DNA of 64,000 nt, from positions 2,551 through 66,550 of the forward strand of contig JAFLEE010000019.1 in the NCBI GenBank assembly GCA_017302015.1, given 5' to 3'. The notes under the pieces were generated by a model. The model made no database searches. It saw only the letters and a program-made list of their open reading frames with translations, and had not been told where the DNA came from. This stretch comes from Spirochaetota bacterium. GTDB taxonomy: Bacteria > Spirochaetota > UBA12135 > COTS27 > JAFLEE01. This document shows, in pieces, positions 1 through 4,902 of the stretch. The position numbers were made by a program, and so were the translations under genes. Each line of letters opens with the position of its first letter. The stretch's first letter is position 1.

Positions 1-346
1 GATTTTTGAAAATGCCCATAATTGATTTTTCTGGATTTCTTTCCAACCCTTTTGATTTCACGAAAATTGCCTTTGTATGGGAAAGTAATTTTGGTTTCAG
101 AAACTGCCGTTTTTGATTTTTCTGGATTTCTTCTCTTAACTCGTTGGGTCATTCGCTTTGGAGCACTACTTGATTATTTCCTTCTGATTTCAAAGAGGTT
201 ACTTTGGTTTGAAGATCAATTTCATTGCCCAGGTTCAGTTTTTGTTTCAGATTTCTTGATTTCTGATTCCTCATTTGATTCTGATCAAATTTCTACAATT
301 CCTATTCTCTTGATTCCTTTTCTGCATCTCTTTTGATTTCGCCTAA

Positions 347-464
347 CGTGGCGTTCAGCAGCGCCGATATTTAAATGGTCCTTTCGAATACGAAATACAT
401 TTCGAAAAACGGGTAAGTTCGAAGGCAAAGCCGGTGCGGCGTCTGCTGCAACGAATTGTTCGAG
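347..464 (-). other. attC of cassette 6 (about 118 bp). On the - strand: R'' CTCGAAC, then L'' aattcgttgcagcagacgccgc, then L' gcggcgctgctgaacgccac, then R' G|TTAGGC.
   Basis: L''/L' are inverse-complementary (cgttgcagcagacgccg versus cggcgctgctgaacg). R'' CTCGAAC is the exact reverse complement of G+TTCGAG, the cassette's own 5' end, as expected for a circularised cassette. The AACAATTCGTT...GACGCCGC start resembles class-1 59-be sites. Confidence 0.6.
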
Positions 465-599
465 TGCCTTTCTCATTCTGAGATTCCTGATCTCTTTTCT
501 TCATGTTTTCTCTATTTCTGAAATTCTTCAAATCTCTTCATCTGTCCTTACTTTTTGGATTTTGACCTAAGTTTTTTGTATTCCCCTGAGTCACTCGAA
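347..599 (-). repeat. Cassette 6, an ORF-less 253-bp gene cassette. It is copy 1 of duplicated element R1, near-identical to 3321..3574.
   Basis: Direct repeat of about 254 bp with only a few mismatches to 3321..3574. Bounded by G|TTCGAG (G 600 from the preceding attC) and ...ccacG|TTAGGC (G 347). No ORF of at least 60 aa that is confined to the element. Confidence 0.6.
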
Positions 600-650
600 C
601 GGTTAGGTTGAGCGGCGACCCTTGGGCGTCCGCTCGAACCTTTGTTAGGC
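600..650 (-). other. Short attC (about 51 bp) ending cassette 5. On the - strand: R'' GCCTAAC, L'' ggttcgagcggac, L' gtcgccgctcaacctaacc, R' G(600)|TTCGAG.
   Basis: Perfect RYYYAAC inverse core. Imperfect L''/L' inverted repeat (ggtt..gagcgg). Lies immediately 3' of cassette ORF 759..1403. The crossover G is followed by the start of the R1 cassette. Confidence 0.5.
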
Positions 651-758
651 CGTTAAAAATACCAATACCTCTCGACTGTTTTGTTGCCCAGACCTCTGGA
701 GAAGCAAATTTTGTTTTGGAATTTCATCATTGCATACTCATTTGTCAAACGTAGCGAA

Positions 759-1403
759 TCATCTTTCTGAGATTGAGTTTTTTACTTTTATCGAAAACGC
801 CAATACATCAACGCCATCTCGAAAATTAAATAACCGAATCGCCAGATTATTTCTAAAAATAGTCACGGAGTTCGTTTTATGTGCCCTTGTGCTGTCACTA
901 GGAAATCGAACTGGAGTGTTTCGCTCAATAAGTAAGATAGTGTTTGTCTCAATCATAATTAGCGAGTGCATCGAGGCATACAAGTCAACCGAGCCCGAGC
1001 CCTGTGTTGCCGATTCCAGAAAGACCATGTATCGAGTGGTCTCGCTCGACTTACTATAGTAGAGTTTGCCAACCGCAATTCTGTTTGTGGCCGAATCGAA
1101 ATACTCTAAGCCATCTTGATCGTTACATTTTAAAATTTTGAATGCACTCGGCTTATTGCTTCTTGAAAAAAATCGAGTTTCAACCCCAGAAATCCATGGG
1201 ACGTTCGATTCTGTTATTGGGCCATTGTTTCTTTGGCCACAAAATGAGGTTTCGTAGTCATTGTAGTGCAATCCCAACTTAAATACATTAAGTGAATTTG
1301 AAAAATCCACTATTTGTATCTTATGGTTGTATACTGATTCTGATATTGGAAAGCAATTAAGCGCCAAAATAATACATAGAAAAGAAATTTTACAACAAAT
1401 CAT
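759..1403 (-). CDS. Cassette-encoded hypothetical secreted protein (214 aa) with an N-terminal signal-peptide-like segment MICCKISFLCIILALNC.
   Basis: Complete ORF inside cassette 5 (1463..600). ATG preceded by a GAGGA Shine-Dalgarno 8 nt upstream. AT-rich codon usage typical of cassette DNA. No recognisable domain. Confidence 0.6.
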   Translation of the reverse strand: MICCKISFLCIILALNCFPISESVYNHKIQIVDFSNSLNVFKLGLHYNDYETSFCGQRNNGPITESNVPWISGVETRFFSRSNKPSAFKILKCNDQDGLEYFDSATNRIAVGKLYYSKSSETTRYMVFLESATQGSGSVDLYASMHSLIMIETNTILLIERNTPVRFPSDSTRAHKTNSVTIFRNNLAIRLFNFRDGVDVLAFSIKVKNSISER

Positions 1404-1463
1404 ATGATATCCTCAGATACTGTTGCTATATAAAAAGGTTTTATTATTCGCGCATTCATATAA

Positions 1464-1674
1464 CGCCAGGCACTCAAGAAATGCACCGTAACAAGCCTAT
1501 CATGAGAAGACGAGGAAAGTTCACCGGTGCATTTGGTTCGGAAGGGCGCCCGAAAAGAGGGCGATAAATCCCAGAAAGCCCTCTTTTCGGGCGCTCTGGA
1601 GAACCTGACGAACCCCCCCCCCCGGAGGCCGAAGGCCGGAGCGGGGGTGAGGAACTTGAGTGGCCTCGTTAGGT
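1464..1674 (-). other. attC of cassette 4 (211 bp, 'giant' attC). On the - strand: R'' ACCTAAC, then L'' and two long internal hairpins, then L' cttgagtgcctggc, then R' G(1464)|TTATAT.
   Basis: Outer imperfect inverted repeat (aacgccaggcactcaag / cttgagtggcctcgtt). R'' ACCTAAC equals the reverse complement of G+TTAGGT, the 5' end of its own cassette at 2227. About 85% identical to 2228..2435 and 3050..3252. Confidence 0.6.
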
Positions 1675-1777
1675 GAAAAGACTGGGCGGCGCAGGATGCG
1701 CCTCTTCTCTTGTATTTTGCGTTGAACAACGCCAAGAAACGAAGGCGCGAATTCCAAGTCGAGTAAAGCGAAAAAAA

Positions 1778-2137
1778 TCATTTCGATGCGACCCATTTTT
1801 CATACTGCACATAGTCCCTCTGGATTACCTCTTTTTCAAACAACTTCGAAACTGCACCACCAAAAGAAATTTTATCAGTATATTCTGGATATTCGGCCTT
1901 AGAAATTACATCGCGATAATCAATAATTGCAATTTCGATTTGGTTTCGAAGTCTTTCAATATTTTTAGATGAATTTCTGATAGCGTCGATCCAAACCCTG
2001 TACCTACCGTTTTTGCTGCCCTCACCAGAATACTTCATCAGTATAGAGAATACCATGTCGAAAGATTCCCGCGGAAACTCACGAGTAATAATTCTATTGA
2101 CGTCTTCAATTGAAAAAACCGGTACTTTCTGATCCAA
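1778..2137 (-). CDS. Cassette-encoded hypothetical protein (119 aa). TTG start as listed. GGAGA Shine-Dalgarno 8 nt upstream.
   Basis: Only ORF inside cassette 4 (2227..1464). An in-frame upstream stop limits the N-terminus. No recognisable domain. The start codon is uncertain (TTG or ATT). Confidence 0.5.
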   Translation of the reverse strand: MDQKVPVFSIEDVNRIITREFPRESFDMVFSILMKYSGEGSKNGRYRVWIDAIRNSSKNIERLRNQIEIAIIDYRDVISKAEYPEYTDKISFGGAVSKLFEKEVIQRDYVQYEKWVASK

Positions 2138-2227
2138 GAGAATCTCTCCAATATGGATATTTCATGATTTCATTTTGAACATCTTAGGCCGCCAGGAAGG
2201 CGGCCTCTTGCCCAGGCTTTTTACCTA

Positions 2228-2435
2228 ACGCCAGACACTCAAGAAATGCACCGTAATAAGCCTACCATGAGAAGACGAGGAAAGTTCACCGGTGCATTTG
2301 GTTCGGAAGAGCGCCCAAAAAGAGGGCGATAAATCCCCGAAAGCACTCTTTTTGGGCGCTCTGGAGAACCTGACGAATCCCCCCGGAGGCCGCAGGCCGG
2401 AGCGGGGGTGAGGAACTTGAGTGGCCTCGTTATGC
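2228..2435 (-). other. attC of cassette 3 (208 bp, 'giant' attC). On the - strand: R'' GCATAAC ... R' G(2228)|TTAGGT.
   Basis: Same architecture as 1464..1674. R'' GCATAAC is the reverse complement of G+TTATGC, the cassette's own 5' end at 3049. R' GTTAGGT fits the GTTRRRY consensus. Confidence 0.6.
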
Positions 2436-2493
2436 GCAATGGTCGGGCGCCGCAGGATGCGGCTCTTATTCTTAAATCGATTTAGATCCATAT

Positions 2494-2994
2494 TCAACTT
2501 TCCATTTCGATTCCCATGATTTTTAAAGAATTTGAAATTATACATGACAATACGTACTGTGTTGCATTCCCAGGAAGGGAAAAATCGAAACGCGTGTGTT
2601 CATTTTCAATATTCAAATAAATGCCAATTCTTTTAAGTATCATGACATTTGAAAATTCTACTTCGGTTGGATTCTTTTTCTGAAACAGCGATATTTTAAC
2701 CGGATCAGCAAGTTCTTCGCGGTGATGGTCGAAATACAACCTTGGAGATCTACCCGAATCAGCTATTTTAAATTCACATAAAATATTTTCAATACAACGA
2801 GTTCTTATTTTTTCTGATTCTTTCAAAATCATTTTAACAAGATCTGATTTCAATGAAATATCGGCGCCTGGTTCAATATTCAGGTCGACCGCAACAGGAT
2901 ACCCATTTACGATCAACGTAGAATCATAATAGTCCATGTGACCTTTTTGAGGAATCATTCCGAATGGATTGAAATCAAAGGTCTTCATTGACAT
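2494..2994 (-). CDS. Cassette-encoded hypothetical protein (about 166 aa, MSMKTFDFNPF...).
   Basis: ORF inside cassette 3 (3049..2228). The listed ORF starts at TTG 3000. ATG at 2994, or ATG at 2988 with GGAG 7 nt upstream, is a more likely start. No recognisable domain. Confidence 0.55.
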   Translation of the reverse strand: MSMKTFDFNPFGMIPQKGHMDYYDSTLIVNGYPVAVDLNIEPGADISLKSDLVKMILKESEKIRTRCIENILCEFKIADSGRSPRLYFDHHREELADPVKISLFQKKNPTEVEFSNVMILKRIGIYLNIENEHTRFDFSLPGNATQYVLSCIISNSLKIMGIEMES

Positions 2995-3049
2995 CTCCAA
3001 AATCTTTGGCCGCCACGATGGCGGCCTCTTGCCCGACTATTGCGCATAA

Positions 3050-3252
3050 CGCCAGGCACTCAAGAAATGCACCGTCTAGAGCCTACCATGGAACCTTGTG
3101 GAAAGTTCACCGGTGCATTTGGTTCGGAAGAGCGCCCCAAAAGAGGGCGATAATTCCCAGAAAGCCCTCTTTTGGGGCGCTCTGGAGAACCTGACGAACC
3201 CCCGAGCCGACCTTGGCGAGCGGGGTGAGGAACTTGAGTGGCCCCGTTATAT
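3050..3252 (-). other. attC of cassette 2 (203 bp, 'giant' attC). Cassette 2 (3320..3050) contains only 68 bp plus this attC and has no ORF. On the - strand: R'' ATATAAC ... R' G(3050)|TTATGC.
   Basis: Same three-hairpin architecture as the other two long attC sites. ORF 3060..3281 lies entirely within the repeat and is judged non-coding. Confidence 0.55.
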
Positions 3253-3320
3253 GAATGCGCTCTAGTCAATTTCATCCCCATTTTCTTCTCTTTTCAATCA
3301 TTCCTCAGTTCTTCGCCTAA

Positions 3321-3574
3321 CGTGGCGTTCAGCAGCGCCGATATTTAAATGGTCCTTTCGAATACGAAATACATTTCGAAAAACGGGTAATTTCGAAGGC
3401 AAAGCCCGTGCGGCGTCTGCTGCAACGAATTGTTCGAGTGCCTTTCTCATTCTGAGATTCCTGATCTTTTTTCTTCATGTTTTCTCTGTCTCTGAAATTC
3501 TTCAAATCTCTTCATCTATCCTTACTTTTTTTGATTCTGACCTGAGTTTTTTGTATTCCCTTGATTCACTCGAA
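3321..3574 (-). repeat. Cassette 1, the attI-proximal cassette (254 bp). It is copy 2 of duplicated element R1. Its own attC lies at 3321..3438 (R'' CTCGAAC at 3432..3438 on the + strand as gttcgag; R' G(3321)|TTAGGC).
   Basis: Near-identical to 347..599. Bounded by G(3575)|TTCGAG and ccacG(3321)|TTAGGC. Confidence 0.6.
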
Positions 3575-3669
3575 CAAGAATTAGGCGATCGCCAGTAATC
3601 CCCCACCCACGCCCGTTTCACCCGAATTGTCCCGGTTCTGTTTTTTCACAAAAGAGCATAGCATGCCCT
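3575..3669 (-). other. Candidate attI and intI promoter region. The crossover is predicted at G3575|T3574.
   Basis: 95-bp region between the intI start codon and the first G|TT cassette boundary. Contains the palindrome ggcgatcgcc. The assignment rests on position only. If R1 copy 2 is not a cassette, attI would instead end at G3321. Confidence 0.35.
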
Positions 3670-4902
3670 ATGCAACTAAAACGCCCAAACCCCGATGAAA
3701 TCAAGGCTTTTAAAGCGCACTTACTCGATTCCGGCCATCCCGAAAACCGGGTGGCCTGGTCCATCAAATGGCTGGAACGCTTTTTGGTGGAATGTGCGGA
3801 TCCAATCTTGACGGACCAGACTGTCAACCAATATTTACATTCCCTGGAGGGGCGATTTTTAGACTGGCAGGTGAGGCAGGCGTCCGAGGTGATTTCCCGC
3901 TATGGGGCTTGGTCGGGTGGAGTGAGTTTGGATGGAGAGCCGAAGGATTCAGCGCTGATCGCCGAGGCGAAGGCGCAGATCCGCCTCCTCCACTATGCCT
4001 ATCGCACCGAGCAGAGTTACCTCGATTGGCATCGGCGGTTTCTCAGGTTTCGGCGGGAGGAGGGGCTCCCCCTTGAGGCGCGTGCACTATCCTCTTTTTT
4101 GAGGAAGTTAAATGAAGGCGATGGAGTAGCCGCCTCGACCCTCAATCAGGCGCATCACGCGGTGGCCTTTCTCTTTAAGCACGTCCTTCGGAAGGAGGTG
4201 GATGCCCTGGAAGAGGTGCCGCTGGCGAAGCGGCCGAAAAGACTCCCTCAGGTCATTTCGCGGGAGGAAGTTTCTCGCCTGCTTTCGCAGATGAATGGGA
4301 CCACGGGGATCATGGGTGCGCTCCTCTACGGTTGCGGATTACGACTGATGGAATGCTGCCGATTACGGATAAAAGATATCGATCTAACGGGGAAGGGGGT
4401 CATGGTTCGGGGTGGGAAGGGCGGGAAGGACCGCAGGGTGCCCTTACCGCGGCGGCTCGAAGAAATCCTCGCCCAACAGATGCGCGTGGTGAAGCTCCGG
4501 CATGAAAGCGATGCCGAGCAGGGCATCCCCGTGTCCCTTCCCGAGGGCCTTGAGCGGAAGTACCCCGGCGCGGGCCTCGAGTGGCCATGGTTCTACGTGT
4601 TCCCTTCGGGGTCGACGTGCCAGCATCCCCGCCTTGCCTTGGTGGTGCGCCACCATCTCTTCGAGGACACGCTTCAACGGGCGGTGAAGGTGGCGGGAAT
4701 CCGGGCGAACCTATCGGTGCCGGCCCATTGCCATCTATTACGCCATTCCTATGCCACCCATCTTTTGGAGGCCGGGACGGATATCCGCACCCTCCAGGAA
4801 CTCCTCGGGCACCGCGATGTGTCCACCACCATGATCTATACCCACGTGATCCAGAGGCCGGGCCAGATGGTATCAAGTCCGTTGGATCTTCTTGGGCCTT
4901 AA
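3670..4902 (+). CDS. intI: Integron integrase IntI (tyrosine recombinase, 410 aa as annotated). A GTG start at 3922 would give a typical 326-aa IntI.
   Basis: Motifs read from the translation: IRLLHYAYRTEQSY (IntI N-terminus), the IntI-specific additional-domain signature LERKYPGAGLEWPWFYVFPS, VVRHH, HLLRHSYATHLL (HxxR) and GHRDVSTTMIYTHV (catalytic Tyr). Confidence 0.92.
   Translation: MQLKRPNPDEIKAFKAHLLDSGHPENRVAWSIKWLERFLVECADPILTDQTVNQYLHSLEGRFLDWQVRQASEVISRYGAWSGGVSLDGEPKDSALIAEAKAQIRLLHYAYRTEQSYLDWHRRFLRFRREEGLPLEARALSSFLRKLNEGDGVAASTLNQAHHAVAFLFKHVLRKEVDALEEVPLAKRPKRLPQVISREEVSRLLSQMNGTTGIMGALLYGCGLRLMECCRLRIKDIDLTGKGVMVRGGKGGKDRRVPLPRRLEEILAQQMRVVKLRHESDAEQGIPVSLPEGLERKYPGAGLEWPWFYVFPSGSTCQHPRLALVVRHHLFEDTLQRAVKVAGIRANLSVPAHCHLLRHSYATHLLEAGTDIRTLQELLGHRDVSTTMIYTHVIQRPGQMVSSPLDLLGP

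Follow-up and report, generated by a model that had tools for sequence, protein, structure and literature searches.

An AT-rich block beside an integron integrase gene in an uncultured, GC-rich (66% GC) Spirochaetota genome raises the question of what its open reading frames are. An earlier note, made from the letters, had described three minus-strand ORFs of 214, 119 and about 166 amino acids there, all of which are present, and had called them the best candidates for undescribed functions in the window (the whole stretch of 64,000 nucleotides that was analysed). Are they integron cargo, are they genes, and does anything point to what they do? We find that ORF1, ORF2 and ORF3 are probably the cargo of three separate cassettes in a classical chromosomal integron of this bacterium.

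The integron and its setting

The integron context that the earlier note had claimed is borne out by the integrase match, by the G|TT junctions and by the folds of the attC sites.

3670..4902, plus strand: intI, the integron integrase gene (TIGR02249; VchIntIA, 2a3v), divergent from the cassette array

The TIGR02249 model gives the intI product a score of 357.9 bits (cutoff, 265), and the product aligns with VchIntIA (2a3v) at an E value of 8e-63, active-site motifs included. The cassette array begins about 95 nt upstream of intI. The three minus-strand ORFs lie to the left of this gene, and their cassettes, counted from attI, are the third to the fifth. On the other side of intI, to its right, are genes for cytochromes c, acetyl-CoA synthetase and glycoside hydrolases, which indicates a chromosomal setting. 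No cassette-strand promoter was found near attI, and promoter-like sites in positions 1 to 3900 occur at the level of chance (6 found versus 6.0 expected).

600..1463, minus strand: ORF1 cassette (864 nt)
594..650, minus strand: short attC-like hairpin closing the ORF1 cassette (57 nt)
1464..2228, minus strand: ORF2 cassette (765 nt)
1458..1674, minus strand: long attC of the ORF2 cassette (217 nt, 58% GC)
2229..3049, minus strand: ORF3 cassette (821 nt)
2223..2435, minus strand: long attC of the ORF3 cassette (213 nt)
3044..3252, minus strand: long attC of an ORF-less cassette (3050-3320) that separates the ORF3 cassette from the first one in the array

All three ORF cassettes end exactly at G|TT crossover points, and the complementarity of their ends agrees with these borders. 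The ORF2 cassette starts with GTTAGGTaaaaagcctgggc, which is complementary at 18/20 positions to gcccagtcttttcACCTAAC in the flank of its own attC; for the ORF3 cassette, 19/20 terminal nucleotides pair between the start, GTTATGCgcaatagtcggg, and its own attC flank, cccgaccattgcGCATAAC, and inverted-repeat analysis of the two ends gave 21 nt with 95% complementarity. The D2 cassette shows an end complementarity of 9/9. The ORF1 cassette starts at TTATAT, which follows the G|TT of the attC before it, and runs to the G of its short attC. Its start is complementary at 15/15 positions to 3246-3260, the 5' flank of the first long attC, and does not pair with the short attC of the cassette itself. 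In the ORF2 cassette the long attC takes the form of a branched cruciform, with folding free energies of -62.6 and -60.4 kcal/mol (z scores, -8.5 and -8.1). The attC boxes are ACCTAAC...GTTATAT in the ORF2 cassette and GCATAAC...GTTAGGT in the ORF3 cassette. The hairpin of the short attC, with R'' GCCTAAC (650->644) and R' G|TTCGAG (600->594), is weaker than those of the long attCs (z scores, -2.1 and -3.5). The three long attCs are about 85 to 93% identical to one another. The array contains two ORF-less cassettes, and an ORF-less cassette is duplicated.

In most of these respects the locus resembles the sedentary chromosomal integrons, such as the Vibrio cholerae superintegron with its VCR attCs, the Xanthomonas arrays and the spirochaete integrons. 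These likewise have a divergent intI, single-ORF cassettes with no promoter detected, G|TT junctions, a similar attC repeated along the array, and cargo whose functions are for the most part unknown and whose composition is unlike that of the host. Each of the three cassettes here holds one ORF in the orientation of the array, and no promoter was detected in any of them. What differs is that the long attCs are 209 to 217 nt in length and branched, with an outer stem of about 20 bp, whereas described attCs span about 57 to 141 nt; that two further attC types occur in the same short stretch of the array; and that the GC contrast is very large (34 to 38% in the ORFs versus 66% in the genome).

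Are the ORFs genes?

759..1403, minus strand: ORF1, 214 aa, ATG start; no homologue, family or PDB match
1778..2137, minus strand: ORF2, 119 aa, TTG start; identical to GenBank MBN8216439.1 (hypothetical protein)
2494..2988 or 2494..3000, minus strand: ORF3, 164 aa from the ATG at 2988 or 168 aa from the TTG at 3000

For ORF3 a further ATG, at 2994, gives the 166 amino acids and the end coordinate of the earlier note; the ATG at 2988 is the GenBank call and has the best Shine-Dalgarno sequence. Shine-Dalgarno-like sites lie 6 to 7 nt upstream of each ORF (GAGG at 1411-1414 for ORF1, GGAGAG at 2144-2149 for ORF2 and GGAG at 2995-2998 for ORF3), and a leave-one-out codon model ranked the frame proposed for each ORF first among the six. 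When the cassettes were shuffled with their composition preserved, the length of ORF1 was equalled in 0/2000 shuffles, that of ORF3 in 2/2000 and that of ORF2 in 76/2000 (3.8%), so that ORF2 is marginal when judged by length alone.

That one or more of the ORFs is a chance open frame in noncoding or decayed cassette DNA is unlikely. Some results fit such a reading: the ORF1 product is missing from the public protein collections searched, where the ORF2 and ORF3 products of the same metagenome-assembled genome (MAG) are present; ORF2 is of a length that shuffled DNA reaches; none of the three ORFs has a homologue, and hence there is no sign of purifying selection or expression; the same array has its two ORF-less cassettes; and the single-sequence AlphaFold2 models of ORF1 and ORF3 are unusable (pLDDT, 32.9 and 28.8). 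Low pLDDT values are, however, to be expected from any single-sequence prediction, and the presence of ORF2 and ORF3 in the collections suggests that ORF1 was probably skipped by the GenBank annotation. Against a chance origin, ORF1 and ORF3 are far longer than expected in DNA of 34 to 38% GC, all three ORFs fill their cassettes and follow the orientation of the array, and each combines a properly spaced Shine-Dalgarno sequence with the best of the six frames. The composition itself could suggest that the AT-rich block was fused to a GC-rich contig by an error of assembly or binning, since GC content jumps from 0.42 in positions 1 to 3600 to 0.66 in the remainder of the window and the block sits at the end of a MAG contig. 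Such a chimera is highly improbable: attC sites of 56 to 58% GC alternate with the AT-rich ORFs, and exact integrase-type junctions adjoin an intact intI on the same molecule, a pattern that a chimera would not yield. We infer that the cassette genes are foreign in composition and are lineage-restricted orphans.

Searches for relatives and for known functions

The earlier note had seen no recognisable domains in the ORFs, and this holds: Pfam, NCBIfam, PADLOC and PHROGs gave only noise for all three. A sequence search of the PDB returned nothing below an E value of 0.4, ORF2 and ORF3 drew nothing but noise from plasmids and phages in tblastn, and scans of viral contigs found no relative. In a word-indexed search of 5.8 billion proteins, ORF1 matched nothing, and ORF2 and ORF3 each matched only itself, as the GenBank protein of the Spirochaetota MAG. 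An exhaustive phmmer search against 1.84 billion representative proteins covered ORF1 and gave 0 matches; ORF2 and ORF3 were covered by the word-indexed search, which may miss relatives below about 35 to 40% identity. Matches of ORF2 to CrAss_Ring_2 (E = 0.0019) and L19e (E = 0.015 to 0.046) were taken as noise, well below the curated cutoffs where these are given. In the Rfam scan of the whole window nothing reached the gathering threshold, and at E values up to 1 the attC stems gave only microRNA-like hairpin noise.

Two assignments to something already known deserve attention. Conflict-type functions are known to be overrepresented among integron cassettes (background cited in PMC10963911), and the earlier note had raised toxin-antitoxin and defence roles. 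ORF3 is small and acidic and resembles many immunity proteins in this respect, and it has a PADLOC match to BrxF. It is nevertheless quite unlikely that the cassettes encode conflict systems, whether for anti-phage defence, as a toxin-antitoxin module or as an orphan immunity protein. With one ORF and untranslated flanks of 56 to 103 nt per cassette there is no space for a partner gene; no toxin or antitoxin family was matched, and the ORFs show no known toxin or nuclease motif. None of PADLOC, Pfam, NCBIfam and PHROGs gave a significant match, and the BrxF match (the only one from PADLOC; E = 0.0076, 14.6 bits) spans 53 residues at the level of noise and was discounted. Neither role that the earlier note had proposed therefore finds support. 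The other assignment would make ORF3 a member of Pfam DUF2004 (PF09406), a conserved family with no assigned function, and so not an orphan. NCBI names the identical 164-aa protein "DUF2004 domain-containing protein," and its length presumably fits that family. We consider this membership doubtful: Pfam-A gives no family for the 168-aa form at E values up to 1 or for the 164-aa form at values up to 10, the precomputed Pfam field of the protein is empty, and neither the word-indexed search nor tblastn against plasmids and phages offered a relative. A literature search turned up no paper naming DUF2004 or PF09406. What ORF3 shares with the family is thus the GenBank product name and an approximate length, whereas a match of ORF3 to its HMM could not be reproduced.

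ORF1 as a putative exported protein

1335..1403, minus strand: signal-peptide-like N-terminus of ORF1 (aa 1 to 23, MICCKISFLCIILALNCFPISES, then V24), with n, h and c regions read from the sequence

The signal-peptide-like N-terminus of ORF1, which the earlier note had also remarked on, is confirmed by inspection and hydropathy. K5 is followed by a hydrophobic stretch from I6 to F18, then P19 and S21-E22-S23|V24, and hydropathy peaks at 2.66 over residues 8 to 18; elsewhere in the protein only a short stretch at about residues 148 to 149 is comparable. By inspection, ORF1 has the features expected for Sec-dependent cleavage by signal peptidase I: a positively charged n region, a hydrophobic h region within the usual span of 7 to 15 residues, and small residues at -3 and -1 (S21 and S23). 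The residues A14-L15-N16-C17 depart from the canonical lipobox, [LVI][ASTVI][GAS]C; this A-L-N-C17 may, we assume, fit the relaxed lipobox patterns of spirochaetes, which would be an alternative to cleavage by signal peptidase I. The mature part contains two cysteines, C55 and C93. ORF1 is predicted to be exported and, as read from its sequence, beta rich. It shares a Sec-type signal peptide and an unannotated function with the secreted and membrane cassette proteins of environmental surveys (Ghaly and colleagues; PMC10963911), but it has no sequence relative, so that the class alone is shared, and its export is a prediction.

Conservation in related integrons

A 20-mer from the attC had 0 matches among 185,579 species genomes and 2 in metagenomes. 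One of the two metagenome loci, L002, was a chance match. The other, an independent contig, L001, carries an attC that is 92% identical and bounded by TATAAC...GTTAGAT; its flanking sequence is different and the ORFs are not shared. Among 40 loci with related integrases (up to 52% identity) there was neither a homologue of the ORFs nor a copy of the long attC. The single match that tblastn gave for ORF3, in L021 (E = 3e-4; database size, 475 kb), was rejected, as it lies antisense inside the L021 integrase gene. The earlier note had suggested looking for co-occurrence of the ORFs in other arrays and had named conservation of the attC without the ORFs as evidence against its reading. In the small sample of L001 and the 40 loci, the ORFs are not conserved where the attC is, and they co-occur in none of the 40 related integrons.

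What the cassettes may do and how they may have arisen

Taking the ORFs as cassette cargo, we propose the following course of events. The integrase would have taken up the cassettes in circular form, and their transcription would start from a promoter close to attI or intI. The ORF3 and ORF2 cassettes may have entered later than ORF1, by attC x attC recombination at a long attC that once lay directly upstream of ORF1, and this would be why the start of the ORF1 cassette completes the first long attC. The cassettes are putative substrates for excision and integration by IntI. ORF1 would be exported via Sec and either cut after S23 or lipid modified at C17, and it may act as a binding or structural protein of about 21 kDa, beta rich and located in the periplasm or at the surface. 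ORF2 looks, by eye, all helical, and both it and ORF3, which is acidic (pI, 5.6), would be cytoplasmic. They may be stand-alone proteins (14 kDa and probably helical for ORF2; 19 kDa for ORF3), and they would more plausibly bind a partner, as an immunity, antitoxin or regulator protein does, than act as enzymes. Neither has a recognisable catalytic motif.

The architecture of the cassettes allows a bolder reading. In the ORF2 and ORF3 cassettes, the unrelated AT-rich ORFs are surrounded by the same conserved GC-rich frame, about 300 nt in length, which comprises a hairpin in the 3' UTR, a covarying stem (about 20 bp), the branched attC of 213 to 217 nt and a hairpin in the 5' UTR. An ORF-less cassette with the same attC adjoins them. 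Possibly, cassettes arise in the host lineage when foreign genes are put into such a ready-made frame, attC included. The sharp breaks in composition would then mark the joints, and the ORFs would have been captured recently from AT-rich donors and would have folds or functions that are truly new; ORF1, for example, could be a new secreted effector. We think this reading of the frame very unlikely; if it were correct, it would offer a handle on how integron cassettes originate.

For the cassettes of sedentary integrons the published description is "mostly unknown function," with signal peptides in 11 to 14% of cassette ORFs (PMC10963911). Orphan cassette genes, secreted ones included, are the norm for chromosomal integrons, so that the earlier note's phrase, the best candidates for undescribed functions, is literally true but only trivially so. 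Three more orphan proteins join a very large pool of uncharacterised cassette products, which matters little as it stands; should a new function be confirmed, ORF1, ORF2 and ORF3 would be useful examples. We rate the surroundings as more notable than the ORFs, namely, the branched attCs of 209 to 217 nt, the duplicated ORF-less cassette and the GC contrast. The standard integron-detection program has a default attC limit of 200 nt. The orphan genes described here, of which ORF1 was possibly missed by public annotation, sit in an integron with attCs above that limit, and arrays with such long attCs may be underreported in metagenome-assembled genomes.

Results and Discussion

This locus is arranged like a sedentary chromosomal integron, with intI, the integron integrase gene, divergent from a cassette array to its left.

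Features of the integron (positions in the window, strand, feature).
347-599 and 3321-3574, two copies, cassette of ~254 nt without a long ORF
600-1463, minus, ORF1 cassette, ending in a 57-nt hairpin GCCTAAC...G|TTCGAG, unlike the long attCs
759-1403, minus, ORF1, 214 aa, ATG start
1458-1674, minus, long attC of the ORF2 cassette; from 1674 to 1458, ACCTAAC ... GTTATAT
1778-2137, minus, ORF2, 119 aa, TTG start, same as the GenBank call
2223-2435, minus, long attC of the ORF3 cassette; from 2435 to 2223, GCATAAC ... GTTAGGT
2494-3000, minus, ORF3, 168 aa from TTG
3044-3252, minus, first long attC; from 3252 to 3044, ATATAAC ... GTTATGC
3670-4902, plus, intI, 410 aa, TIGR02249 match

The 410-aa intI product scored 357.9 bits against TIGR02249 (cutoff, 265), contains Phage_integrase and Phage_int_SAM_4 domains, and aligned end to end with the Vibrio cholerae integron integrase 2a3v (E = 8e-63), with the active-site motifs LRLMEC, GKGGK.R, H..RHS.ATH, LGH, and IYTHV aligned between the two. 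To the right of intI are cytochromes c, acetyl-CoA synthetase, and glycoside hydrolases, indicating that the integron is chromosomal. An N-terminal extension of ~95 aa (3670-3960) precedes the region matched by TIGR02249 and VchIntIA. Integrases of two compared loci, L019 and L027, align with the intI product from residues 6 and 18, and from these alignments the extension seems to be conserved in some relatives.

The three minus-strand ORFs exist as an earlier note had described them. When each cassette was shuffled, the length of ORF1 was reached in none of 2000 shuffles, that of ORF3 in 2/2000, and that of ORF2 in 76/2000; by length, ORF2 is the weakest gene case of the three. For every ORF, the proposed frame ranked first of six under a codon model that had been trained on the remaining two, and a Shine-Dalgarno-like site lies 6-7 nt upstream of each. 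All three are probably genes. ORF3 has an alternative start, an ATG at 2988 that lies 6 nt after GGAG, is the GenBank start, and gives 164 aa. The ORF2 protein is identical to GenBank MBN8216439.1 (from a 'Spirochaetes bacterium' MAG). In the public protein collections searched, the ORF2 and ORF3 products are present and only that of ORF1 is missing, which suggests that the GenBank pipeline skipped ORF1.

The claim that the ORFs have no recognisable domains holds, as none of the three proteins gave anything above noise in Pfam, NCBIfam, PADLOC, or PHROGs, and none had a PDB sequence match. For ORF1, a word-indexed search spanning 5.8 billion proteins and an exhaustive phmmer search of 1.84 billion representatives, which covered ORF1, were both without matches. 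ORF2 and ORF3 were covered by the word-indexed search, which can miss distant relatives, and there they matched only themselves. Plasmids, phages, and viral contigs were searched with tblastn and yielded nothing. The NCBI product name of ORF3, 'DUF2004 domain-containing protein', was not reproduced: there was no Pfam match, and the precomputed Pfam field of the protein collection was empty. Single-sequence AlphaFold2 models were unusable (pLDDT of 32.9 for ORF1 and 28.8 for ORF3). Toxin-antitoxin pairing had also been raised, but a single ORF occupies each cassette, leaving only 56-103 nt on either side, so there is no such pair.

The signal-peptide-like N-terminus that had been noticed in ORF1 was seen again: MICCK-ISFLCIILALNCF-P-ISES|V combines a single positive charge with a hydrophobic core of 13 residues, followed by a proline and by small residues at -3/-1. 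Judged from these residues it is a standard Sec signal peptide, with a relaxed lipobox at C17 as a possible alternative. Mature ORF1 is predicted to be ~21 kDa with two cysteines; at full length, ORF1 has a basic pI of 8.7 and an abundance of S, N, I, and F. ORF2 (14 kDa) lacks a hydrophobic segment and, by eye, seems all-helical, and ORF3 (19 kDa) is acidic and has no membrane segment. ORF1 may thus be an exported protein of a binding or structural class, and ORF2 and ORF3 may be small cytoplasmic proteins of a binding class. Cassettes of sedentary chromosomal integrons are described as mostly of unknown function, with signal peptides in 11-14% of cassette ORFs (PMC10963911), and integrons are already known in Spirochaetes (PMC4889954; PMC8352920). 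Three orphan cassettes, one of them with a predicted secreted product, are therefore ordinary.

The context of the array is more unusual than the ORFs: long attCs, a doubled 254-nt ORF-less cassette, and an extreme contrast in composition between cargo and host. The leftmost 3.6 kb of the window is AT-rich, with a GC of 0.42, and the remainder has a GC of 0.66; the cassette ORFs have 34-38% GC, the attCs 56-58%, intI 59%, and the remaining genome 66%.

Three copies of a long repeat stand between the ORFs. On the minus strand, each of these attCs opens with an RYYYAAC box and closes with a GTTRRRY box; each is 209-217 nt long with 56-58% GC, and is ~85-93% identical to the others. On either strand they fold into a branched four-way cruciform closed by both boxes (dG of about -60 kcal/mol, z of about -8). 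Under the integron model, each G|TT crossover is followed by six bases that are part of the next cassette and complete the attC of that same cassette. The array fits this prediction, and pairing extends beyond the boxes. At the start of the ORF3 cassette, ~20 nt are complementary to the sequence flanking the cassette's own R'' box (19/20 terminal nt); the ORF2 cassette, whose start differs in sequence, pairs with its own R'' flank at 18/20. This covariation of cassette ends with their own attC flanks is good evidence that the ORF2 and ORF3 cassettes are real and integrase-made. An outer stem of ~20 bp is expected in the circular form, its sequence varying by cassette with complementarity kept. 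The usual attC is shorter than 209-217 nt and the default attC maximum of IntegronFinder is 200 nt; this array may therefore escape standard tools.

The alignment of the ORF2 and ORF3 cassettes showed a common 5'-UTR hairpin, GGCCGCC.TC.TGGCGGCC, and a common 3'-UTR hairpin, G(G/C)CGCATCCTGCG(C/G)C; both are GC-rich, and the AT-rich ORFs inside are unrelated. The 3'-UTR hairpins (1688-1702 and 2449-2463) look terminator-like on the plus strand, antisense to the cassettes, and may block transcription entering the array from the far side. Terminator-like sites overall were not above chance (7 found versus 4.8 expected).

At the start of the ORF1 cassette, TTATATgaatgcgc is complementary at 15/15 positions to the flank of the first long attC (3246-3260). 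In the simplest history, ORF1 would originally have lain immediately downstream of this attC, and the G|TT of the attC would later have received the ORF3 and ORF2 cassettes. The ORF-less cassette that carries it (3050-3320) begins with TTAGGC, matching the R'' box GCCTAAC of the short attC of ORF1. The ends of this cassette and of the ORF1 cassette (600-1463) are thus mismatched reciprocally, which suggests that they were one unit or adjacent before the ORF3 and ORF2 cassettes came to lie between them.

A 20-mer from the attC core was found in none of 185,579 species genomes and in one real metagenome contig, L001 (Ga0154020_10225197). The attC of L001 (93-311) is 92% identical and bounded by TATAAC...GTTAGAT, and the surrounding sequence is unrelated. 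Among 40 loci with integrases at most 52% identical, there was no homologue of ORF1-ORF3 and no copy of the long attC. The earlier note had held that an attC conserved without its ORFs in related arrays would tell against its proposal of undescribed functions, and the attC, not the genes, is the only conservation seen, in a tiny sample. Directly beside the attC of L001, on the opposite strand, is a 396-aa ORF (359-1549) that reads like a candidate IS256-family transposase.

The two copies of the ~254-nt cassette are ~95-97% identical, depending on the alignment method; one directly adjoins attI, the other comes after the ORF1 cassette, and both are followed by TTAGGCGAA. This cassette has its own attC of ~130 nt, in which R'' CACTCGAAC is complementary to the start of the cassette at 9/9 positions. 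A promoter or small RNA could reside in the cassette, or the cassette could be the trace of a duplication or of a multi-cassette circle inserted by attC x attC recombination. The next cassette (1-346) shows a strong purine bias on the minus strand, has the exact 20-mer TTGATTTTTCTGGATTTCTT at both 22-41 and 113-132, and continues past the left window edge, as does an open frame within it.
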